A stretch of 51,442 nucleotides of DNA from Patescibacteria group bacterium (GCA_028711415.1 JAQTSG010000002.1:1-51442), one strand, 5' to 3'. Positions 1 through 36,050 are shown, counted from the first letter of the stretch. The notes: generated from the letters alone by a model not told the origin. Numbers and translations are program-made.

Positions 1-1083
1 AACGGCGGAGTTGATATCGGTAAGCCCTGTATGACCAATGGCGATTGCAGCGGCGGCGTTCAGTGTCGAGATGACGCTCTGGGCACGACCGGAGATCCTC
101 CGGCCGACCCATTTTTATCAAGCGCAGACGTTATCGCTAATTATAATAGCGCTACCGGTTATATTACTGGGTGGGCGAAAATTTTGGTTTTAGGCGAGGA
201 CGGCTGGATAAATTTCGGAGATTTGGTTGAAGGCGAAACCACCTTTCCCTTAAACTTTCCCTTAAATTTTCCCCTCGTATTTGCCAGCGGCACATTCGGC
301 GTATCCATTGCGTCGAGTACGGGCGAATGGAGCGGTTGGGCCTGGAACGGAAATAATGCCGGCGAACCGGGGATTGGCTGGGTCAGTTTTAATTGTTTAG
401 ATACAGATAGTTGCGCGAGTTCGGATTATAAAGTTATTTCAATTTTAAATGAGGCGCCTACCGCAGTTAATTTATCCGCGCCGAACTGGAGTTATGAGCA
501 GGCCTGCGCTTTGGACGCTAGACGGGCGTTCCTGCGCTGGGAATTTAGCGACCCGGACGCGGGATCTTCCCAGGCCTCTTACCAAATTATTCTTAATGAT
601 AATAATAACCCCAACAGCCCCCTTATTGATACGGGTAAATTAGAGGGAGGGGCAAGCCAATATCCGCTTGGGCCGGATGACCTAGATTACAATGAGACTT
701 ATTATTGGTGGGTAAGAGTCTGGGACAATTTTAATGTCGCTTCAGAACTTATAGCTGGTCCATCGTTTACTACCTATGAGCACGAATTTCCCGAAGTGGC
801 TTTTACCTGGTTTACGGAAAATCCCAGCCGGGACGAGGAAGTAAAATTTACTGATAATTCAACTACTGATGGCGGAACGACTATAGCCAGCTTATTATGG
901 ACAGCTCCCGACGCTTCAATTAATGATCCGGCCACCTCTACGCCAATCATTATTTTCAATTCTTCCGGCAGCCAGTCAGTAACCCTGAAAGTAACTGACA
1001 GTGATGGCTATTATTGTAGTTTAACGGAAACTATAAACGCGAATGTGAATTTGCCGGGCTGGAAAGAAGTGAAACCCCGTTAG
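1..1083 (+). CDS. 5'-truncated secreted/surface protein with C-terminal PKD-like domain
   Basis: Frame 1 is open from base 1 (no stop before the ATG at 31), so the gene probably starts upstream of the window. Motifs: GW..GWVSFNC; YYWWVRVWD beta-sandwich signature; PKD-like VKFTDNS...VTLKVTDSDGYY. The TAG stop (1081-1083) lies inside a CCCCGTTAGAAAT repeat copy. Confidence 0.6.
   Translation, partial: NGGVDIGKPCMTNGDCSGGVQCRDDALGTTGDPPADPFLSSADVIANYNSATGYITGWAKILVLGEDGWINFGDLVEGETTFPLNFPLNFPLVFASGTFGVSIASSTGEWSGWAWNGNNAGEPGIGWVSFNCLDTDSCASSDYKVISILNEAPTAVNLSAPNWSYEQACALDARRAFLRWEFSDPDAGSSQASYQIILNDNNNPNSPLIDTGKLEGGASQYPLGPDDLDYNETYYWWVRVWDNFNVASELIAGPSFTTYEHEFPEVAFTWFTENPSRDEEVKFTDNSTTDGGTTIASLLWTAPDASINDPATSTPIIIFNSSGSQSVTLKVTDSDGYYCSLTETINANVNLPGWKEVKPR
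244..279 (+). repeat. 12-nt in-frame tandem repeat (tttcccttaaac x2 plus one degenerate unit) encoding FPLNFPLNFPLV
   Basis: Direct reading: tttcccttaaac / tttcccttaaat / tttcccctcgta. Confidence 0.8.
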
Positions 1084-1178
1084 AAATGACAAAGTTTTTG
1101 CCTTATCCTTTTCCCGAAGAACCAATTTTATTTGTCATTACTGCCATAAGCGGAGAGGATTTCTAACGGGGTGAAACC
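1069..1178. repeat. Inverted-repeat bracket copy A (CCCCGTTAGAAAT 1075-1087 / ATTTCTAACGGGG 1159-1171) with nested inverted repeat aatgacaaa/tttgtcatt (1085-1093 / 1131-1139)
   Basis: Both 13-mers are perfect reverse complements. Both are flanked by gtgaaacc. Located between the PKD protein stop and the pilin operon. Confidence 0.85.
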
Positions 1179-1227
1179 AGAATAGGCCCATCTTTATAAG
1201 ATAAATGAAAAAATACAGAGAAGTTAT

Positions 1228-2705: not shown

Positions 2706-3281
2706 ATGTTAAAAAATATTTTAAAAAACAACAAGGGCGTGACTTTGCTGGAGATGATAGTTTCTGTGGCTATATTTTCCGAGGTTATGCTTTCGACTAT
2801 GGGGATTTTTCAGATAGTGATTGAGGGGCAGCGCAACGCTGTCGCTTCCCAAAATATTCAGGAGAGCATGCGATACGCTTTTGAAACTATGGCTAAAGAA
2901 ATCAGGACTGCGGTAGCGAGTAATTATGATTGCGAGTCCTTGTTCGGTTCGCCGCCGGCAGCGACCAATAAGGTTTTTAATACCACCATCAATAGCGAAG
3001 GTGATATCTTGTATTTTAAAAATAAAGAAGGCGTTTGCGTAGCTTATTATTTAGAAGATGAGACTTTAAAGATTACGAGGGGAGTAAACACCGCTTCCAC
3101 TGTTCCCGCCAAAATTAAAATTACTAATTTAAGTTTTAAAATTTCCGATGATTTAATCGGCGCTTTTCACAGTCAACAACCATTAGTGACCATGAAAATG
3201 GATATTGAAGCGGCGGGAAAGGCAATGCATAAGCAGGCGATGAAAATGCAGACGACCGTTTCCTCCCGATACTATGAGTAA
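2706..3281 (+). CDS. Minor pilin / pseudopilin (PilW/GspJ-like)
   Basis: NNKG|VTLLEMIVSVAIF with Glu at +5, then a hydrophobic helix. Confidence 0.7.
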   Translation: MLKNILKNNKGVTLLEMIVSVAIFSEVMLSTMGIFQIVIEGQRNAVASQNIQESMRYAFETMAKEIRTAVASNYDCESLFGSPPAATNKVFNTTINSEGDILYFKNKEGVCVAYYLEDETLKITRGVNTASTVPAKIKITNLSFKISDDLIGAFHSQQPLVTMKMDIEAAGKAMHKQAMKMQTTVSSRYYE

Positions 3282-3442
3282 TGAATTATTAGATAGTGAG
3301 AATTTTGATTTTATCTGATACCCTGATTCTCGATATCCTTTCCCCGATTGACTAATTACCCGTTTACTTTTAGAATATCAGTTTAAACAGGATATCAGGG
3401 AAAGGATAACAGTTTATCGGAATATTGGTCAAGTAATTTAAA

Positions 3443-3832
3443 ATGAAAAATTATATAAAAAAAATAAATAATAAAAGCGGTACGGCGCTTCTTTTAACTT
3501 TGCTGATTTTAACCAGTATTTTAGTGGTGGCTTTAGGGGCCGCCAGCTTAATTACTGCCGGTATAACTATAGGTCGGACGCAGGCGCAATCAACTAAAGC
3601 TTTTTTCGCCGCCGAAGCCGGAGCGGAACAAGCCCTGTGGGAAGTAAGAAAAAACAGCTATTCTATCCCCGGGGCTGATACTGACGATATTTTTTTAGGG
3701 AGCTTAAGTAACAGCAGCTCTTATGCTGTAGACCTTGCCGTTTCCCTTCCCCAGGTAACCTTTACCTCTACCGGCAGTTTCCGGCAAGTTAAAAGAAGCA
3801 TTGCCGTTGATTTTGAAGTTGATAATCCTTAA
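3443..3832 (+). CDS. PilX/GspK-like minor pilin (no Glu+5)
   Basis: NKSG|TALLLTLLILTSILVVALGAASL. Last gene of the pilin operon, as is typical for PilX/GspK-type proteins. Confidence 0.55.
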   Translation: MKNYIKKINNKSGTALLLTLLILTSILVVALGAASLITAGITIGRTQAQSTKAFFAAEAGAEQALWEVRKNSYSIPGADTDDIFLGSLSNSSSYAVDLAVSLPQVTFTSTGSFRQVKRSIAVDFEVDNP

Positions 3833-3836
3833 TTAT

Positions 3837-4007
3837 TTACCCCGTTAGAAATTTAGATAGAAATAGTTGGAATGTTTGTATTTAAAAGTTTTTAAAATGA
3901 ATTACCGCATGCTGATTTTATAGAGAATTTTGTTGAAAAACTGAAAGATTACCATCTAAAATATTATTTATGGAGAAAAAAGATAACAAAATTTCTAACG
4001 AGGTGGA
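3837..4007. repeat. Inverted-repeat bracket copy B around the ligA start (CCCCGTTAGAAAT 3840-3852 / ATTTCTAACGAGG 3991-4003)
   Basis: The upstream arm starts 5 nt after the stop of the preceding gene. The downstream arm lies in codons 8-12 of ligA. Confidence 0.85.
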
Positions 4008-6174: not shown

Positions 6175-6241
6175 CAACGAATGCAACGAATAAATTTGAG
6201 TATTATAACGAATCAACGGATATCGCACGAATATAACGAAT
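6156..6241 (+). repeat. Array of 8 irregularly spaced AACGAAT-type heptamers (6 perfect, 2 variants)
   Basis: Copies start at 6156, 6164, 6176, 6185, 6207, 6215 (AACGGAT), 6226 (CACGAAT) and 6235. One inverted copy, attcgtt, lies at 6670-6676 on the other side of the GxxExxY gene. Confidence 0.85.
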
Positions 6242-6256
6242 AATAATGTGATATAT

Positions 6257-6649
6257 ATGCAAGGAGGGGAGCATATAATTTATAAAGATTTGAGTTATAA
6301 AATTGTTGGTATTATGTTTGAAATTTATAACGAGTTGGGATATGGTTATCAAGAAAAACATTATGAGAGAGCGGCTGAAAAAATTTTCATTGAACGGAAA
6401 ATAGATTACAAAAAGCAATTACGGCATAATATAATTTTTCACAACGAGAAAATAGGGACTTATTACTTTGATTTTTTAATTGAAGATAAAATTATAGTTG
6501 AGTTGAAGAAAGGAAATTATTTCTCCAGGAAAAATATAATTCAGGTTAAAGAATATTTATCGGCTGTCGGCTTGAAGCTGGCTTTAATAATAAATTTTAC
6601 TCCTTATGGAGTAAAAACTTTAAGGATATTAAATCCAAACAATAAGTAG
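6257..6649 (+). CDS. GxxExxY family protein (PD-(D/E)xK nuclease fold)
   Basis: NELGYGYQEKHY matches GxxExxY. DFLIEDKIIVELKK matches a D..ExK core. The track ORF starts at GTG 6248; the first ATG is at 6257. Confidence 0.75.
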   Translation: MQGGEHIIYKDLSYKIVGIMFEIYNELGYGYQEKHYERAAEKIFIERKIDYKKQLRHNIIFHNEKIGTYYFDFLIEDKIIVELKKGNYFSRKNIIQVKEYLSAVGLKLALIINFTPYGVKTLRILNPNNK

Positions 6650-6702
6650 TCAACAGTTTAATTAGTGTAATTCGTTGTTAAATTTGTTGATTTGCGGATA
6701 AT

Positions 6703-8531: not shown

Positions 8532-8645
8532 GGAGAGGTCGCCTAGTGGCCGATGGCGCACGCTTGGAAAGCGTGTATACCGCAAGGTATCGAGGGTTCG
8601 TGGGGTCATTCGACCCCACGCCCAGTCGAATGACTGGGCGAATCC
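8532..8645 (+). pseudogene. Truncated tRNA-Ser(GGA) copy: 5' 69 nt identical to the intact gene, then a 40-nt insertion in the T-loop, then aatcc; no 3' T-stem or acceptor strand
   Basis: 8532-8600 is identical base for base to 8915-8983. No CCTCTCC-type 3' acceptor strand follows. Confidence 0.85.
8601..8640 (+). other. Double hairpin block inserted in the T-loop of the truncated tRNA copy
   Basis: tggggtc-attc-gacccca (8601-8618) and gcccagtc-gaat-gactgggc (8620-8639). The apical segments gtcattcgac and gtcgaatgac are reverse complements of each other, so an alternative fold exists. Confidence 0.7.
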
Positions 8646-8650
8646 ACGCT

Positions 8651-8929
8651 ATGTATTATGTTTATATATTATTACAAAATGATGGTAATTTATATAAGGG
8701 TAGCACGGATAATTTGAAACAAAGAATTGAGGAACACAATGCCGGCAAAGTTATTTCCACTAAACATAAAAGACCCTTAAAATTGATCCATTATGAAGGT
8801 TATTTGTTTAAGGAAGATGCCCAAAGAAGGGAAAAGTATTTAAAGACAACCGAGGGCAGGAGGTTTTTGAGACAACAATTAAAAATTTTTTATATAAAGT
8901 ATAATATCAAATCCGGAGAGGTCGCCTAG
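8651..8929 (+). CDS. GIY-YIG nuclease family protein (small YhbQ/YazA-like, COG2827 type)
   Basis: MYYVYILLQNDGNLYKGSTDNLKQRIEEHNAGK...REKYLK. The track ORF start (8546) lies inside the tRNA fragment and is rejected. The stop TAG (8927-8929) lies 15 nt inside the intact tRNA-Ser. Confidence 0.85.
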   Translation: MYYVYILLQNDGNLYKGSTDNLKQRIEEHNAGKVISTKHKRPLKLIHYEGYLFKEDAQRREKYLKTTEGRRFLRQQLKIFYIKYNIKSGEVA

Positions 8930-8999
8930 TGGCCGATGGCGCACGCTTGGAAAGCGTGTATACCGCAAGGTATCGAGGGTTCGAATCCCTCTCTCTCCG
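8915..8999 (+). tRNA. tRNA-Ser (anticodon GGA), class II with long variable arm
   Basis: Manual fold: acceptor GGAGAGG/TCTCTCC (one G-U); 3-bp D stem; anticodon stem CACGC/GCGTG with loop TTGGAAA; variable arm ATACC-GCAA-GGTAT; T arm GAGGG-TTCGAAT-CCCTC; discriminator G. CCA is not encoded. Confidence 0.9.
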
Positions 9000-9022
9000 C
9001 TTTTAAACCACCCCCATTTTTA

Positions 9023-9072: not shown

Positions 9073-9264
9073 ATGGCGAGGAAGAAATTAGAAGAAAGAA
9101 ATATAAGAAAATTGGCTAAGGTTGGCGGAAAAAGAACCTATAGCTTAACTTTGTCGATTGAGGCAATAAGGGAATTTGGCTGGAAGGAAGGCCAGAAAGT
9201 GGTTATTGAAGTGGACAAAAAAGGGCAAAGGTTTATAATAAAAGACTGGAAAGATAAATTATAA
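9073..9264 (+). CDS. AbrB/SpoVT/MazE-like small DNA-binding protein
   Basis: 63 aa. YSLTLSIEAIREFGWKEGQKVVIEVD resembles the swapped-hairpin (looped-hinge) beta-barrel motif. The assignment is by pattern only. Confidence 0.5.
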   Translation: MARKKLEERNIRKLAKVGGKRTYSLTLSIEAIREFGWKEGQKVVIEVDKKGQRFIIKDWKDKL

Positions 9265-9280
9265 TAATTAAATAAATGTA

Positions 9281-9421
9281 TTCACCCCGTTAGAAATCTC
9301 GCAAAAAATAAACGGGTAAAAAACATCAGCCAGAAGCTGATCCGCCTTCGGCGGAAAATATTAAAAAATTAGTTAGTATATTATTATGGAGAAAGAAAAC
9401 AAAAAAATTTCTAATGGGGTA
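9281..9421. repeat. Inverted-repeat bracket copy C around the gmd start (CCCCGTTAGAAAT 9285-9297 / ATTTCTAATGGGG 9407-9419), enclosing two small hairpins
   Basis: Internal hairpins atcagc-cagaa-gctgat (9325-9341) and tccgcc-ttc-ggcgga (9341-9355). Confidence 0.85.
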
Positions 9422-10378
9422 AAAAAAGCTTTAATTACGGGCATAACCGGGCAGGACGGCTCATATTTGGCGGAACTGCTGCTGGCTAAGAGTTATCGGG
9501 TTTTTGGTTTGGAAAGAAGATCCTCAACAAAAAATCGGACCAATATAGAGAAGATTGAAAAAAATATAAATTTTATCTCTGGCGACTTAACCGACCAGCA
9601 TTCTCTAACCCGCGCCATCGCTTCAGCTGAGCCGGATGAAGTTTATAATCTGGCGGCGCAAAGTTTTGTTAAGGAATCCTGGGAGCAGCCGGAATATACG
9701 GGCGACGTTACCGGTCTGGGCGCTTTAAGGGTTTTAGAAGCCATCCGGCAGGTCAATCCGAAAATAAAATATTACCAGGCGTCTTCTTCGGAGATGTTCG
9801 GCCGGGTGCAGGAAACGCCGCAGAGTGAAAAGACGCCTTTCTATCCCCGCAGCCCTTATGGCGTAGCTAAATTATATGCCCATTGGATAACGGTTAATTA
9901 CCGTGAGTCTTATAATATTTTTACCTGCAGCGGGATTTTATTTAACCATGAATCAGAACGTCGGGGCTTAGAATTTGTTACCAGGAAAATTACCAACGCC
10001 GCGGCTAAAATAAAATTAGGTTTAGAGAATAAATTATATTTAGGGAATTTAGACGCTAAAAGAGATTGGGGATACGCGCCGGAGTACGCGGAAGCGATGT
10101 GGATGATGCTCCAGCGAGAAGAACCGGAAGATTTTGTTATTGCCACGGGCGAGGCCCACAGCGTGAAAGATTTTGTGGAGGCGGCTTTTGCCGTAGTGGA
10201 TTTAGATTGGAAGAAATACGTAGAGATTGATGATTGTTTTAAACGCCCCGCCGAGGTTTACTCCTTGGTGGGGGACGCCAGCAAAGCTAAAACTAAATTG
10301 GGCTGGCGGCCGAAGGTTAATTTCTCTGAATTGGTAAAAATTATGGTAGAAGCTGATTTAAAAAAATTAAAGAAATAA
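9386..10378 (+). CDS. gmd: GDP-mannose 4,6-dehydratase
   Basis: [19 protein letters not shown] Rossmann N-terminus, SSSEMFG, YGVAKLY (catalytic YxxxK), NHESERRG. Confidence 0.93.
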
Positions 10379-10493
10379 AGATTTTCTTAAAACGGAAAAT
10401 ATCGGAGTTAATTCCGGATAAGTATATGTGATTGCTTATTTTAGCGCGAAAAGTTGACGATAATGATATTTTGTTTTTTTATAATTAGATAAT

Positions 10494-11969
10494 ATGACGA
10501 CGAAGAAAATAGCCTTAATATCATTATATCCAAGCGAGGCAAAAGATATCCCGCCTTTAGCGTCTTTATATCTGGCTACGGCTTTAACCATGAACGGGTT
10601 TGACGCAAAAATAATCCATAAAAATACCGAGGCTATTGGCAGCATTATGTCGGAGGTTGTTGATTATAACCCTGATTTAATAGGGATGTCAGTTTTTACC
10701 GGTTATAATAATAAAAAAAGCGTTGAATTAAGCAAATCTTTGAAGGCCGGGGGATATAAAATTGTTTGGGGCAATGCCCATCCCTCGTTATTGCCCGAGC
10801 AAACCCTAAGAGAACCAAGCGTGGACTTTGTGGTGATGGGCGAGGGGGAGGAAACATTATTAGAGTTAGTAAAGAATCTTGATGCTCCGGGTAAGTATTA
10901 TTCCATTAAAGGATTGGGTTTCAAAGACGAAAAGGATAATATAATAATTAATAAGAAGAGAGAATTTATAAATCCGGACAGTTATTTAATTGATTGGTCG
11001 CTTATAAATATTGAAGATTATCTCCAGCCGTATTTTTCCAATAAATATAAGAGAGTTCTTTTGGTTACAACCTCCAGAGGCTGCCCGTTTAATTGCCAGT
11101 TTTGCTACAATTTGGTTTTTAATAATAGAAGATGGCGGGCGCATAGCGCTAAAAAAATAATCGAAAATTTAAAGCCAATTATTGAAAAATATAAAATTGA
11201 CGCGCTTCGTTTTATAGACGATAATTTTTTTGTTGATAAAGAGCGAGCTTTTGAAATAGTTCGGGAATTAAATGTTCCGTATTTCGCCGAAGCCAGGGTT
11301 GAATATGTTGATGAAGGGTTTGTTAATAATCTAAAAGAAACTAAGTGCCAGGAAATAATGTTTGGTTTTGAATCGGGCTCGGATAGAATTTTAAAAGAAG
11401 TAATTAAGAAAGGCACGACAACTAAAGATACGATTAGGGCGGTTACTTTATTGAAAGATTCAAAAATAATGGTCTCGGGTTCTTTTGTTTTCGGTTTTCC
11501 CGGAGAAACAAAAGAGGAATATAGGGAGACGATGGAATTCATAATTAAGTTATTGAAAATAAACAATAATTTAGCTTTTACTTGTGGCTGGTATCTGCCT
11601 TATCCCGGCGCGGGTCTTTATTATAAGGCGATAGAAGATGGATTTAAACCGCCGGAAAAAATTGAGGATTGGGATAAGTTTGATCGTTGGCTTAGCAATT
11701 ATAAGATGGATTGGATTAAATGGGATTATAACCTGCCCGTTAAATATTCCAGGAGAATCATCCATTTATTAGCTTTAGCGCATAAAAGAAACATTCCCCT
11801 GCTTAAATCAATCTTAAATTGGCGCGTAAAAAACCTTAATTTTTCTTTTCCGATTGACATATATATTTTTTCTAAACTTAGAAACATTTATCTTTTTAGC
11901 GGCGATAAAAATATATTTAATAAAATTATCAGATGGTCGGTTAAACAAGCCATTAAAGTTAAACAATAG
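10494..11969 (+). CDS. B12-binding domain radical SAM protein
   Basis: N-terminal cobalamin-binding-like domain, then TSRGCPFNCQFCYN (CX3CX2C). Confidence 0.8.
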   Translation: MTTKKIALISLYPSEAKDIPPLASLYLATALTMNGFDAKIIHKNTEAIGSIMSEVVDYNPDLIGMSVFTGYNNKKSVELSKSLKAGGYKIVWGNAHPSLLPEQTLREPSVDFVVMGEGEETLLELVKNLDAPGKYYSIKGLGFKDEKDNIIINKKREFINPDSYLIDWSLINIEDYLQPYFSNKYKRVLLVTTSRGCPFNCQFCYNLVFNNRRWRAHSAKKIIENLKPIIEKYKIDALRFIDDNFFVDKERAFEIVRELNVPYFAEARVEYVDEGFVNNLKETKCQEIMFGFESGSDRILKEVIKKGTTTKDTIRAVTLLKDSKIMVSGSFVFGFPGETKEEYRETMEFIIKLLKINNNLAFTCGWYLPYPGAGLYYKAIEDGFKPPEKIEDWDKFDRWLSNYKMDWIKWDYNLPVKYSRRIIHLLALAHKRNIPLLKSILNWRVKNLNFSFPIDIYIFSKLRNIYLFSGDKNIFNKIIRWSVKQAIKVKQ

Positions 11970-11971
11970 AT

Positions 11972-13048
11972 ATGAAATTACTGTTGTTAACGCAAAAAAT
12001 CAATATAAATGACGATGTCCTGGGATTCATGCATAGTTGGACGGAGGAATTTTCTAAGCATTGCGAATTAGTGACGGTTGTTTGCCTGGAAAGAGGAGAA
12101 TATAAACTTCCCAAAAATATAAGAGTCCTGTCTTTGGGCAAAGACGAATTTTTACGTTTAGGCAAGCATTTTGGTTTTATCCGCAAATTAGTGGCTACGC
12201 TTAGATTTTATAACTATATAATCCGGGAAAGAAAAAACTACGATAAGGTTTTTGTCCATATGAATAAGGAGTATGTTCTTTTGGGCGGTTTATTATGGAA
12301 AATATGGGGGAAGAAAATAGGCCTTTGGTACGCTCATGGAGCGACTTCTTTTGGCCTGAAAATAGCGGAAAAGTTATCTGATATTATATTTACTTCCACC
12401 CAAAGCGGTTTTAGAATAAAAAGCGATAAAGTCAAAGTGATTGGCCAGGGAATTGAGGTAAATACCTTTAAGCCGGCAGCGGAGAAAAAACGCCATGATA
12501 TTTTTAAGATTATAACTATCGGCAGAATTTCTCCGGTTAAGGACTATGAGACCTTGATTAAAGCTGTTGAGATTTTAGCCGGAGAGGGAATTAGATTGGA
12601 AGTAAATATTATTGGCGGAGTCGGAATGCCGGAACAGGAAAAATATCTGGAGAATTTAAAAAAAATGATAGCGGAGAAAGGATTGGGAGGGATTATGAAT
12701 TTTATTGGCGCTGTTCCCAATAAAAATATCGTCCGGCATTTGCAATCGGCCGACTTATTCGTCAATATGAGTTATACGGGCAGTCTTGATAAAGCTATCT
12801 TAGAAGCAATGGCTTGCGGTTTACCGGTTCTTACCTGCAATGAAGCTTTAATTGAAGTTTTGGGAGAATACAGAAAGAGTTTAATGTATGATAAGGGAGA
12901 TTATAAAAATTTAGCGGAAATGATTAAATTATTTGCCGAAATGGAAGAAGAGAAAAGGGAGAAAATAGCGAAAGATTTGCGCGATATAGTTGTAAAGAAC
13001 CACAGTCTTGAAGGTTTTATTAAAAAAATAATAGAAAAATTTAATTAA
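11972..13048 (+). CDS. Glycosyltransferase family 4
   Basis: C-terminal GT-B motif GRISPVKDY...EAMACGLPVLT. Confidence 0.8.
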   Translation: MKLLLLTQKININDDVLGFMHSWTEEFSKHCELVTVVCLERGEYKLPKNIRVLSLGKDEFLRLGKHFGFIRKLVATLRFYNYIIRERKNYDKVFVHMNKEYVLLGGLLWKIWGKKIGLWYAHGATSFGLKIAEKLSDIIFTSTQSGFRIKSDKVKVIGQGIEVNTFKPAAEKKRHDIFKIITIGRISPVKDYETLIKAVEILAGEGIRLEVNIIGGVGMPEQEKYLENLKKMIAEKGLGGIMNFIGAVPNKNIVRHLQSADLFVNMSYTGSLDKAILEAMACGLPVLTCNEALIEVLGEYRKSLMYDKGDYKNLAEMIKLFAEMEEEKREKIAKDLRDIVVKNHSLEGFIKKIIEKFN

Positions 13049-14809: not shown

Positions 14810-14900
14810 CTTATCGCCGGTAAATTATTTAGCCGTTTGGCTTTATGGCGGCCCTTTTATTTATCCCGTTATTTGTTATTAAAGTTAAAAAATAACCTAT

Positions 14901-15053
14901 GAACCCCATTAGAAGTTCGGTAGATGTCTTCTGTCAAGGGGAAAGATAAGTGTAATTAGGTACAATTATGAAAAAAAATGATAAAATTTCTAATTTAATT
15001 AAAACTTCTAACCCCGTTAGAAATAGATTTCTAAGCGGGGCTAACGGGGTGAA
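14901..15053. repeat. Inverted-repeat bracket copy D plus a complete palindrome inside the annotated GT4 ORF
   Basis: Degenerate upstream arm CCCCATTAGAAGT (14904-14916); ATTTCTAAT (14986-14994); then CCCCGTTAGAAAT (15012-15024) directly followed by ATTTCTAAGCGGGG-CTAACGGGG (15027-15049). Confidence 0.85.
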
Positions 15054-19168: not shown

Positions 19169-20212
19169 ATGAGGAAAAAATATGACCAAAACATATTAAA
19201 TACAAGGTTTGATAAAGAATCCGGGAGCTGGAAAAAACTTTATGAAACGGATAAATCAAGTCTATTTAAATATAATAATAAAAAATACCGCCAACAGTAC
19301 GCGCTGGAAATGATCGGAGAAGGTTCCGGGTTAATTTTAGATTTAGGCTGTGGGTCGGGCAGTTTTTTTGAACTATTGGGAAAATTGGGCTACCGGGTTG
19401 TTGGTCTTGATTCTTCTTCCGGTATGGTTGAATTAGCCGCCGCTGAAGCGCGGAGATTGAATAATGGCCTGGTTATCCGGGGTAACGCGCTAAAACTTCC
19501 GTTTGCCGATAGCGCATTTAACGCCCTGTTAGCCGTGGGGTTGCTTGAATATTTTCCGGCCGATGAGGATTTTTTGGAAAAAATAAAAAAGATAATGAAG
19601 CCCGGCGCTAAAATAGTTATAACTCTAAGAAATGCCCTGTGTTTTGAAAGAAAACTCTGGAAGTTTTACGGGAAAATTGGCCTAAATAAATTTCAAGCCG
19701 ATTATTACTATCGGGAACATAATCCGATAAAATTTGAATCCCTGCTTAAATCAATGGGATTTCAAAATATTCAAAGGCGTTTTTGCCATTTTTATCCTTT
19801 TCCCTGGCCGATAAGCAAACTGGCCGGACCATTAAACTCTTTTTTCGCCAATAAGATGGAAAAATGGTTTTCCGAAAGTTTTATAAATTTTTTGGGCTCA
19901 ACCTATTTAGTCTCCTTTACCGCTCCCAGCAGCGGGTTAGGGGGGCAAAAGACAGAACCAAAAGATATATCGAATTATTTAAAATGTCCGGTGACGGGAC
20001 AGGCCGTTAAGAAAGCTGATTCTTTCGTTCTTAACAAATTAAATAAAAAAATTTCCAGCGGAGAATTGTATAATCGGGGAGGGAAGAAAATAAAAGAAAA
20101 ACTGGATGAAGCTTATATTACGGCGGATAAAAAAATAATTTATCCCGTTAAAAATAGGGCGCCAATATTTTTAGAAGAAGAGTCTTTTAATTTTTACGCT
20201 GATTTATTATGA
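19169..20212 (+). CDS. Class I SAM-dependent methyltransferase with C-terminal Trm112-like domain
   Basis: LDLGCGSG motif I. C-terminal LKCPVTGQ...IYPVKNRAPIFLEEE resembles Trm112/DUF343. Confidence 0.7.
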   Translation: MRKKYDQNILNTRFDKESGSWKKLYETDKSSLFKYNNKKYRQQYALEMIGEGSGLILDLGCGSGSFFELLGKLGYRVVGLDSSSGMVELAAAEARRLNNGLVIRGNALKLPFADSAFNALLAVGLLEYFPADEDFLEKIKKIMKPGAKIVITLRNALCFERKLWKFYGKIGLNKFQADYYYREHNPIKFESLLKSMGFQNIQRRFCHFYPFPWPISKLAGPLNSFFANKMEKWFSESFINFLGSTYLVSFTAPSSGLGGQKTEPKDISNYLKCPVTGQAVKKADSFVLNKLNKKISSGELYNRGGKKIKEKLDEAYITADKKIIYPVKNRAPIFLEEESFNFYADLL

Positions 20213-29385: not shown

Positions 29386-29426
29386 ATTGACACCTATTGA
29401 CACCCATTGACACCCCGCGGTATAAT
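29386..29426 (+). promoter_or_regulatory. Three 10-bp-phased ATTGACACC iterons overlapping a TTGACA-18 nt-TATAAT promoter
   Basis: ATTGACACC at 29386, 29396 and 29406. The -35 TTGACA (29397-29402) pairs with TATAAT (29421-29426). Confidence 0.55.
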
Positions 29427-29432
29427 AATAAT

Positions 29433-29684
29433 ATGAATAACGACGAAATAAAATCAAATGCGGTTTACACTACCCTGGAGGCCCAAGAGCTATTGAAAAT
29501 AAGCAATAGCACTATTAAACGTCTGCTTAAAAAGGGGCTAATAAAAGCCAATAAGGTTGGAGGCCAATATCGTATTTTAGGTAAGGAAATATTGCGTTTA
29601 GTGTCTCCGGAGGTAGAAAAGAAAGCCGTAAAGTCATATCTGGGCCTGAAACAAAAGGTTGTGGATAAAATCAATAGATGGTAA
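29433..29684 (+). CDS. Excisionase-family (HTH_17/MerR-like) DNA-binding protein
   Basis: YTTLEAQELLKISNSTIKRLLKKGLIKANKVGGQYRI matches the excisionase-type helix-turn-helix. The track start at 29397 is a TTG inside the promoter repeats and is rejected. Confidence 0.7.
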   Translation: MNNDEIKSNAVYTTLEAQELLKISNSTIKRLLKKGLIKANKVGGQYRILGKEILRLVSPEVEKKAVKSYLGLKQKVVDKINRW

Positions 29685-35930: not shown

Positions 35931-36050
35931 TCACCCGGTTAGAGATTCGGTTAGCTATAAAGAATAACAAAATTTTTAGCCGGAAAATATTTTTAAAAAG
36001 ATAAAACATTATTATGGAGAAAAAAGAAAAAAAAATTTCTAACGGAGTGA
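35931..36050. repeat. Inverted-repeat bracket copy E (CCCGGTTAGAGAT 35934-35946 / ATTTCTAACGGAG 36035-36047)
   Basis: The upstream arm starts 7 nt after the preceding stop. The downstream arm lies in codons 8-12 of the oxidoreductase. Confidence 0.8.

Follow-up and report, generated by a model that had tools for sequence, protein, structure and literature searches.

We analysed a stretch of 51,442 nucleotides (nt) from a Patescibacteria group bacterium (GCA_028711415.1, JAQTSG010000002.1:1-51442), hereafter the window, and in particular a short sequence that recurs in it as inverted pairs, which we call arms. By Pfam assignment the neighbours of these arms include type IV pilin-like genes and the genes for an NAD-dependent DNA ligase (ligA), a GDP-mannose dehydratase (gmd), a GT4 glycosyltransferase and a Gfo/Idh/MocA oxidoreductase, and all of the flanking genes lie within a long single-strand run of surface-polysaccharide genes. 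With up to 2 mismatches and on both strands, the 13-mer CCCCGTTAGAAAT is matched 12 times as compared to 2.43 expected, a count reached in none of 100 shuffles, while its 11-nt core ACCCCGTTAGA is matched 11 times with at most 1 mismatch as compared to 0.52 expected. Together the arms make up five paired units (1075-1171; 3840-4003 at ligA; 9285-9419 at gmd; 14904-15049 at the GT4 gene; 35934-36047 at the oxidoreductase gene) and one nested mini-copy (Table 1). We conclude that they are most probably the terminal inverted repeats of a small, non-autonomous and mobile palindromic insert that resembles a miniature inverted-repeat transposable element (MITE), and not a dedicated regulator of the 5' untranslated region (UTR).

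An initial annotation of this DNA had described the arms as a dispersed cis element with no relation to the function of its neighbours, and this has been borne out. Its 13-mer coordinates and sequences were all correct on recheck, save for the partner of 14904-14916, which it gave as ATTTCTAAT at 14986-14994; the true partner is a split arm made up of ACTTCTAA and CGGGG. What it had listed as a sixth copy at 15012-15024, with a split partner at 15027-15049, is indeed a repeat, but is recast here as a 29-nt mini-copy that splits the arm of the outer GT4 copy.

Table 1. Arms, interiors and flanking duplications of the inverted-repeat units in the window (TSD, target-site duplication; ORF, open reading frame).
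Feature	Position	Strand	Remark
Copy 1, left TSD copy TGAAA	1070..1074	+	pentamer again at 1172-1176; L243 and L250 have a single ...GTGAAG/GTAAAT... here
Copy 1, left terminal inverted repeat CCCCGTTAGAAAT; TAG 1081-1083 now ends ORF 31-1083	1075..1087	+	
Copy 1, interior, 71 nt	1088..1158	+	fold pairs the arms, z = -4.1
Copy 1, right terminal inverted repeat ATTTCTAACGGGG	1159..1171	+	
Copy 1, right TSD TGAAA, then displaced native gene end CCAGAATAG	1172..1183	+	aligns with relatives' native ends CCCCAATAA, CCCAGATAA
ligA copy, left arm, 8 nt past the stop of ORF 3443-3832	3840..3852	+	
ligA copy, interior; promoter-like TTGAAA-18-TAAAAT (3933-3962), in-frame ATG at 3970	3853..3990	+	
ligA copy, right arm ATTTCTAACGAGG, read I-S-N-E-V; GTG 4003-4005 at the position of relatives' ATG start	3991..4003	+	
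gmd copy, left arm	9285..9297	+	
gmd copy, interior; common right-hand module, ATG at 9386	9298..9406	+	
gmd copy, right arm ATTTCTAATGGGG	9407..9419	+	
GT4 copy, left TSD TGAA within the former GT4 start codon (cctATGAA)	14900..14903	+	
Outer GT4 copy, left arm CCCCATTAGAAGT	14904..14916	+	
Outer GT4 copy, split right arm, part one ACTTCTAA; left CTAA duplication = 15008-15011	15004..15011	+	
Nested 29-nt mini-copy CCCCGTTAGAAATAGATTTCTAAGCGGGG	15012..15040	+	CTAA on both flanks; hairpin fold
Right CTAA duplication (15041-15044), rest of outer right arm CGGGG (15045-15049), right TSD TGAA (15050-15053)	15041..15053	+	
Arm-like 13-mer TCCCGTTAAAAAT with 2 mismatches, unpaired, close to the end of ORF 19169-20212	20143..20155	+	without convincing partner
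Oxidoreductase copy, left arm CCCGGTTAGAGAT	35934..35946	+	
Oxidoreductase copy, interior; common module, ATG at 36014	35947..36034	+	
Oxidoreductase copy, right arm ATTTCTAACGGAG	36035..36047	+	

The arms are mostly bordered by 4-nt direct repeats, in the window for instance the TGAAA around copy 1 and the TGAA around the GT4 copy, and comparison with relatives shows what these sites look like when the element is absent. For copy 1, the orthologues of ORF 31-1083 in the related loci L243 and L250 end in ...EVKPQ* and ...EVNPR* with no element, whereas the window has the element after GTGAAA and, to the right of it, a second TGAAA and the displaced native tail; the TAG inside the left arm that the initial annotation had taken as the stop codon does end this ORF. 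Excision of copy 1 in silico yields GAA GTG AAA CCA GAA TAG. Likewise, once 14904-15053 is removed from the GT4 gene and a single TSD copy is left, a normal GT4 start, ATGAAATTGATTTAT (MKLIYLANARI), is restored. In the ligA and oxidoreductase copies no duplicated copy is involved, and removal of 3840-4003 gives ATGGACAAA (MDKQEAKKRIA) and that of 35934-36047 gives ATGAATAAA (MNKNSKILIIG). Approximately 50 LigA relatives (43-86% identity) start with M-[DNT]-K-x-E... at window codon 12 and none has the arms upstream, and nucleotide homology of ligA to its relatives starts at window position 4004 (residue 12), one base past the right arm. The syntenic loci L242 and L243 lack the whole 9253-10488 stretch, that is, the element together with gmd. 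In 328 kb around ligA from 55 relatives, paired arms were found only in L250, the closest relative. Insertion has also taken place within the element itself: the mini-copy, with its own CTAA duplication, splits the arm of the outer GT4 copy, and the composite of the two is also present in L250 and L091.

To place the element beyond the window, contigs representing one genome per species were scanned with TTYACCCCGTTAGAAAT, which returned at least 119 loci; all cross-genome counts of units and arms given here are among the matches listed. Identical 4-nt flanks are present in 67 of 128 units, whereas 5000 shuffles of the partners averaged 21.7 and never exceeded 36, and inverted flanks are depleted (6 versus 25.2 expected). 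The common duplications are TAAA, TGAA, TTTA and TTCA, a narrow spectrum that is due in part to the search pattern, and units outside the search seed have the varied duplications CTTA, TAGA, CTAA, CCAG and CAAA. A partner on the expected side within 300 nt accompanies 168 of the 184 exact 14-mer arms, and one on the wrong side accompanies 5. Viral contigs scanned with the exact 14-mer arm served as a control for chance: only two of the 121 occurrences listed are paired, both in one contig. This contig, L234 (IMG/VR), is the sole one with paired arms listed from the viral collection and carries two units (3244-3340 and 3961-4000); either a prophage or a wrongly classified piece of a host that bears the element could account for it.

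Uncultivated bacteria are the source of all but one of the loci, the exception being a solo arm in Ureaplasma ceti that is probably a chance match. By record title the hosts include Thermodesulfobacteriota/Deltaproteobacteria, Planctomycetota, Omnitrophota and many Patescibacteria lineages, and further Nitrospirae, Gammaproteobacteria, KSB1, Stahlbacteria, Elusimicrobia, Clostridia and Bdellovibrionales, such that identical ends occur in approximately ten phyla. The terminal inverted repeats are 13-14 nt long with the consensus arm ACCCCGTTAGAAAT, and their outer 10 positions are at least 95% invariant over 256 arms. Between the arms little is held in common: the distance runs from approximately 0 to 220 nt (0-9 nt in minimal copies; whole units 24-247 nt), interiors are unrelated between units, and interior GC tracks host GC (rho = 0.54, hosts 32-59% GC). 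The deltaproteobacterial interiors (L001, L016, L035, L043, L069, L075, L103 and L107) are mosaics of the related 14-mers GCCCCGCTGGAATT and ACCCCGCCGGAATT in alternating orientation, which points to repeated nesting and to related ends that form a wider group. Within the window, the unpaired arm-like 13-mer close to the end of ORF 19169-20212 could be what remains of a decayed copy, or a chance match.

A further property of the ends is that each is open in a single reading frame. The left arm reads AAC CCC GTT AGA AAT (N-P-V-R-N) and the right arm ATT TCT AAC GGG GTR (I-S-N-G-V), and the two remaining frames of each contain stop codons. Of the long ORFs downstream of a right arm, 37 use the ISNGV frame and 21 and 14 the other two, and unit length plus 4 is divisible by three in 46 of 93 units (p = 7e-4). 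Approximately 15-20 units are stop-free, in-frame inserts within long ORFs, adding peptides of the form NPVRN...ISNGV to initiation factor IF-2, FolD, Asd (aspartate-semialdehyde dehydrogenase), ProB (glutamate 5-kinase), the glycyl-tRNA synthetase GlyRS, a HypE-like protein, an indolepyruvate oxidoreductase subunit, a UvrD/AddA-like helicase and other ORFs. The shortest copies add 8-12 codons, and some copies lie directly 3' of the start codon, reading MNPVRN...ISNGV.... In FolD and Asd the inserted segments face gaps in alignments to solved structures; the predicted junction peptides include ...EKINPVRNSSISNGVKIILK in IF-2 and ...DVNPVRNWFLRGSSDISNGVKK in Asd. A Pfam scan of the element-encoded peptides gave no match. 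What is observed for this element comprises its inverted ends and duplicated targets, the site left empty in relatives, the nested copy, the patchy distribution and the in-frame insertion in conserved proteins. The initial annotation had set aside a MITE on account of the variable spacer, a position that we do not uphold in view of the TSDs, the empty site, the nested copy, the absence from all but the closest relative and the in-frame inserts.

The copies at ligA, gmd and the oxidoreductase gene have a common right-hand module, TTATTATGGAGAAAAAAGAnAAnAAAATTTCTAACGGGG, which extends to approximately 75 nt in the latter two and holds an ATG in the ISNGV frame; related modules are present in other Patescibacteria (L091, L062, L076, L087 and L250). 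All three ORFs are called with a 12-residue leader, MEKKxKKISNGV, and the right arm does lie about 20 nt inside the called ORFs, as had been noted. The Pfam domains begin at residues 14-17 of these extended ORFs (GDP_Man_Dehyd at 16 in gmd, GFO_IDH_MocA at 17 in the oxidoreductase), and the GT4 gene reads through two arms. Genes of the window have almost no Shine-Dalgarno (SD) sequence and instead an A/T-rich upstream (...aaataat ATG), which suggests that the organism may use SD-independent or leaderless initiation. Because the ATG of the element stands in this same A/T-rich context in a window whose genes are without SD sequences, it is plausibly the start in use. In the ligA copy a promoter-like match, TTGAAA-18-TAAAAT, ends 7 nt before the ATG and might represent an internal promoter, although such matches occur at background frequency in promoter scans. 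We suggest that a start codon is found inside the bracket of arms because the start codon itself was the target of several copies, which now supply its replacement.

These observations allow us to outline how the element might insert and persist. Insertion would duplicate a 4-bp target, mostly TRAA (TTYA on the other strand) and occasionally another tetramer or 5 bp, with the ends fixed and an interior of any length between 0 and about 220 nt. Since the target tetramers occur in the common gene start ATGAAA (TGAA) and after stop codons (TAAA and TGAA), many surviving copies lie exactly at gene starts or ends; that the TRAs on the left flank are simply the regular stops of upstream genes is true in some units but is not the rule. 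Insertion in ATGAAA would leave ATGAA on the left and GGGG-TGAA on the right, so that the ATG becomes an in-frame GTG, which is the exact pattern of the GT4 copy. Copies could persist in genes because each arm is open in one reading frame, and three routes can be envisaged: as a translated in-frame insert, as a new stop for the upstream gene, or by the conversion of a start codon to an in-frame GTG.

Other explanations need to be weighed against insertion of a MITE-like element. The initial annotation favored an RNA stem enclosing the start codon, that is, a dedicated regulatory structure around the 5' UTR acting through RNase III-type processing, translational masking or stabilisation. Minimum-energy folds do pair the arms in four of the five window copies (z from -2.3 to -5.4), the inner arm positions show a degree of symmetric co-variation, and RNase III is known to cut MITEs such as Correia at their inverted ends (PMC10969869). 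This much of the proposal stands; as a dedicated regulator, however, the stem is contradicted by the TSDs and empty site, which indicate insertion, and by the nesting, the patchy distribution that leaves relatives with the same genes but no element, and the many copies that lie within coding regions or past stops and not around starts. Moreover, spacing from 0 to 220 nt is tolerated, and the left arm of the oxidoreductase copy pairs with internal sequence rather than with its right arm. As for the compensatory changes that had been suggested as a check, there is an excess of symmetric change at arm positions 11-13, but one-sided, pair-breaking changes dominate (127 versus 21 symmetric double changes) and it is sequence, and not pairing alone, that is conserved at the outer ten positions over hosts of 32-59% GC. 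We therefore regard a dedicated stem as quite improbable; the hairpin may affect processing or translation, and we treat such an effect as a by-product and not as the reason for the existence of the element.

Alternatively, the units might be of the repetitive extragenic palindromic (REP) or REPIN type, moved as single-stranded hairpin DNA by a REP-associated tyrosine transposase (RAYT; HUH, Y1) and not by a cut-and-paste DDE enzyme. In its favour, the unit in its entirety is a hairpin, its arms co-vary at inner positions, the deltaproteobacterial copies with their related 14-mers alternating in orientation resemble bacterial interspersed mosaic elements (BIMEs), and no DDE transposase was found in the loci listed or the window. 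Nevertheless we consider this unlikely: the variable duplicated tetramers (CTTA, TAGA, CCAG and others) fit a staggered cut and not a fixed, guide-recognised cleavage site, copies lie within genes whereas REPs are by definition extragenic and lineage-specific, and none of the loci listed has a small Y1 transposase ORF between the arms. A site-specific recombinase might instead flip an inter-arm promoter segment and so switch downstream surface-structure genes, since a short segment with inverted repeats does lie upstream of pilin-neighbouring, glycosyltransferase and sugar-modifying genes, a promoter-like match is present in the ligA copy, and Correia elements have been reported to invert (PMC10969869). 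Such an inverton is highly improbable here, given that the 51-kb window has no recombinase gene, the genes affected include ligA and, elsewhere, the interiors of IF-2, FolD and GlyRS, minimal copies hold only 0-9 nt between the arms, promoter matches are at background level and target duplications would not be expected. A core site of a tyrosine recombinase, with 13-nt arms and a short spacer, was rejected on the spacing of approximately 0 to 220 nt. That same unconstrained spacing speaks against paired operators, at which a DNA-binding regulator would loop the DNA between the arms and which the initial annotation had offered as its alternative; the 11-nt core is indeed conserved and in inverted pairs, but copies are found in coding sequence, relatives have the same genes without arms, and the signatures of insertion are present, so that we find this reading scarcely credible.

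Several observations weigh against a MITE-like element as well. Approximately 15 of 96 units, the ligA, gmd and oxidoreductase copies included, are flanked by TTYA...TRAA (or TGGA on the right) and have no direct repeat. Double changes in the arms are symmetric in 21 cases and asymmetric in 9, and positions 11-13 co-vary symmetrically (8 variant triplets versus 0.7 expected), so base-pairing may matter in part. The interiors are far more diverse than those of classical MITE families, and the presence of the same ends over approximately ten phyla is unusual for a MITE. The proposed new starts are sequence-based, and the promoter match is at background level. Finally, no autonomous partner or transposase was found in approximately 1.3 Mb of loci or in the window. 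Some of these points can be accommodated: the inner co-variation fits sub-families with matched ends, or a hairpin role, and nesting may explain part of the interior diversity, with long-term selection on the ends alone perhaps explaining more.

The search for the enzyme that moves the element took several forms. Pfam scans of the 51-kb window gave no transposase, recombinase or integrase, and the loci listed contain neither arm pairs 300-4000 nt apart nor a small Y1 transposase ORF flanked by arms. The widely spaced arm pairs of L068 and L111 have ordinary genes between them and were rejected as the autonomous parent; beside solo arms the ORFs are of the housekeeping type, and no family recurs among them; and clustering of ORFs of at least 220 amino acids in the at least 119 loci gave only large families (ABC ATPases, epimerases and pseudopilins). 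A piggyBac/IS1380-like enzyme as the mover is only a lead. We agree with the initial annotation that the element is not assignable to a described family, there being none in Rfam, Pfam or the literature searched for the arm sequence. An Rfam scan of the window gave only tRNA-Ser at the gathering threshold, the literature searched for the arm sequence, ISNGV and NPVRN held no relevant description, a keyword search on MITEs in the element-bearing phyla gave no useful match, and no database record exists for the exact Gmd protein.

Going a step further, we speculate that a single palindrome family with invariant end cores of approximately 11 nt has spread over at least ten phyla of anoxic and subsurface habitats. 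Translatable in either orientation (NPVRN or ISNGV), it would colonise the coding sequence of essential genes and rebuild their starts, and would represent a pan-bacterial counterpart to the Rickettsia palindromic elements (RPEs), moved by a highly promiscuous putative transposase and acting as a portable start cassette in genomes with no SD sequences. We put this wider proposal forward tentatively, as possible but somewhat short of probable.

The window and the related loci show other signs of rearrangement. Relatives also have an insertion hot spot ahead of ligA: L242 has a different inverted-repeat element there (750-920; ctctacagactgtcc ... ggacagtctggaag), and in L286 (830-1000) the ligA start is duplicated and a palindromic insert rich in GC comes after it. 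Downstream, between ligA and gatC, lies a PD-(D/E)XK nuclease ORF (6248-6649, PF13366; region 6175-6697), which we take as an indel because the ligA-gatC gap is short in L243 (approximately 50 nt) and L242 (approximately 200 nt). A GIY-YIG nuclease ORF (8546-8929) is bordered on either side by tRNA-Ser sequence, at 8532-8600 and 8915-9000. Both copies match the single tRNA of relatives (e.g., L251 4149-4234, approximately 98%), and only the latter is called as a tRNA; the arrangement suggests that a selfish nuclease gene has inserted at a tRNA and duplicated part of it. After gmd, the stretch 10425-10480 is similar to the opening codons of one L243 glycosyltransferase gene (11412-11480) and of the window ORF at 11972, and looks like a gene-start remnant from rearrangement of the polysaccharide cluster. 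A lone small ORF with an HTH_17 (excisionase/MerR-like) domain is present at 29397-29684 in the polysaccharide region, between DUF4956 and ABC transporter genes.

The element has practical consequences for annotation, in that gene starts here and in similar genomes are called inside a transposon end, and element-derived peptides in LigA, Gmd, IF-2, FolD and Asd could pass for lineage-specific motifs. It extends the occurrence of selfish DNA within protein-coding genes from Rickettsia to many uncultivated phyla, and inverted pairs of ACCCCGTTAGA provide a sequence tag with which to trace horizontal transfer among co-occurring phyla. Two questions are raised for future research: which enzyme recognises the ends, and how are genes expressed after their start codon is split?

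The element shares individual features with a number of known systems. Integron attC sites are also imperfect palindromes of 60-140 nt at gene boundaries, and their core sites are GTTRRRY and RYYYAAC, which the GTTAGA/TCTAAC of the arm recalls. The order of the cores is nevertheless reversed in every unit (GTTAGAA...TTCTAAC as compared to RYYYAAC...GTTRRRY in attC), the last core position misfits, copies lie within genes and the window has no integrase, so we do not count the units as attC sites. REP, BIME and REPIN elements are likewise short palindromes with hairpin potential that form mosaics of alternating orientation. REPs are extragenic, lineage-specific, without target duplications and accompanied by a RAYT gene; our element differs in its duplications and in-gene copies, and no RAYT gene was seen in the loci listed, which sets it outside this group. 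With respect to piggyBac and IS1380, only the CCC(C) ends and the 4-bp, A/T-rich duplication match. The piggyBac end is CCCTAGAAAGATA, and its resemblance to CCCCGTTAGAAAT is short and could be due to chance. IS1380 transposases are prokaryotic relatives of the piggyBac superfamily, whose members have CCC ends and the duplication TTAA, with the variants TAAA, CTAA and TCAA (PMC10813416). The element, in contrast, prefers TRAA targets over TTAA, and no transposase of this or any other family was found next to its arms in the loci listed.

Closer parallels are found among dispersed short repeats. The Correia element (CREE, Correia repeat enclosed element) is a co-transcribed, dispersed MITE whose inverted ends are cut by RNase III and which can donate expression signals (PMC10969869). 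In common with this and other prokaryotic MITEs, our element is short and hairpin-forming, has inverted ends, a target duplication and no transposase ORF, and is dispersed in copies that are often upstream of genes. Correia elements, however, have 26-bp ends, a TA duplication, a fixed length of approximately 100-155 bp and a homologous interior and are restricted to Neisseria (in part PMC10969869), as compared to the 13-14 bp ends, 4-bp duplication, unrelated interiors of 0-220 nt and approximately ten phyla of the present element, which for these reasons is not a Correia element. RPEs are palindromic repeats inserted in frame in unrelated housekeeping genes and read as extra peptide (PMC10969869), a feature that our element has as well, being inserted in frame in such unrelated protein-coding genes as those for IF-2, FolD, Asd, ProB and GlyRS. 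Compared by description, RPEs are approximately 100-150 bp long, have conserved interiors and are confined to Rickettsia, whereas in our element only the arms are conserved and the hosts span phyla. Apart from a known parent, the element has the defining features of a MITE that were examined, namely terminal inverted repeats, a target-site duplication, small size without a transposase ORF, and dispersed copies with filled and empty sites. It is best filed as a new family among a known kind of element, notable for its breadth over phyla and for its coding-compatible ends.

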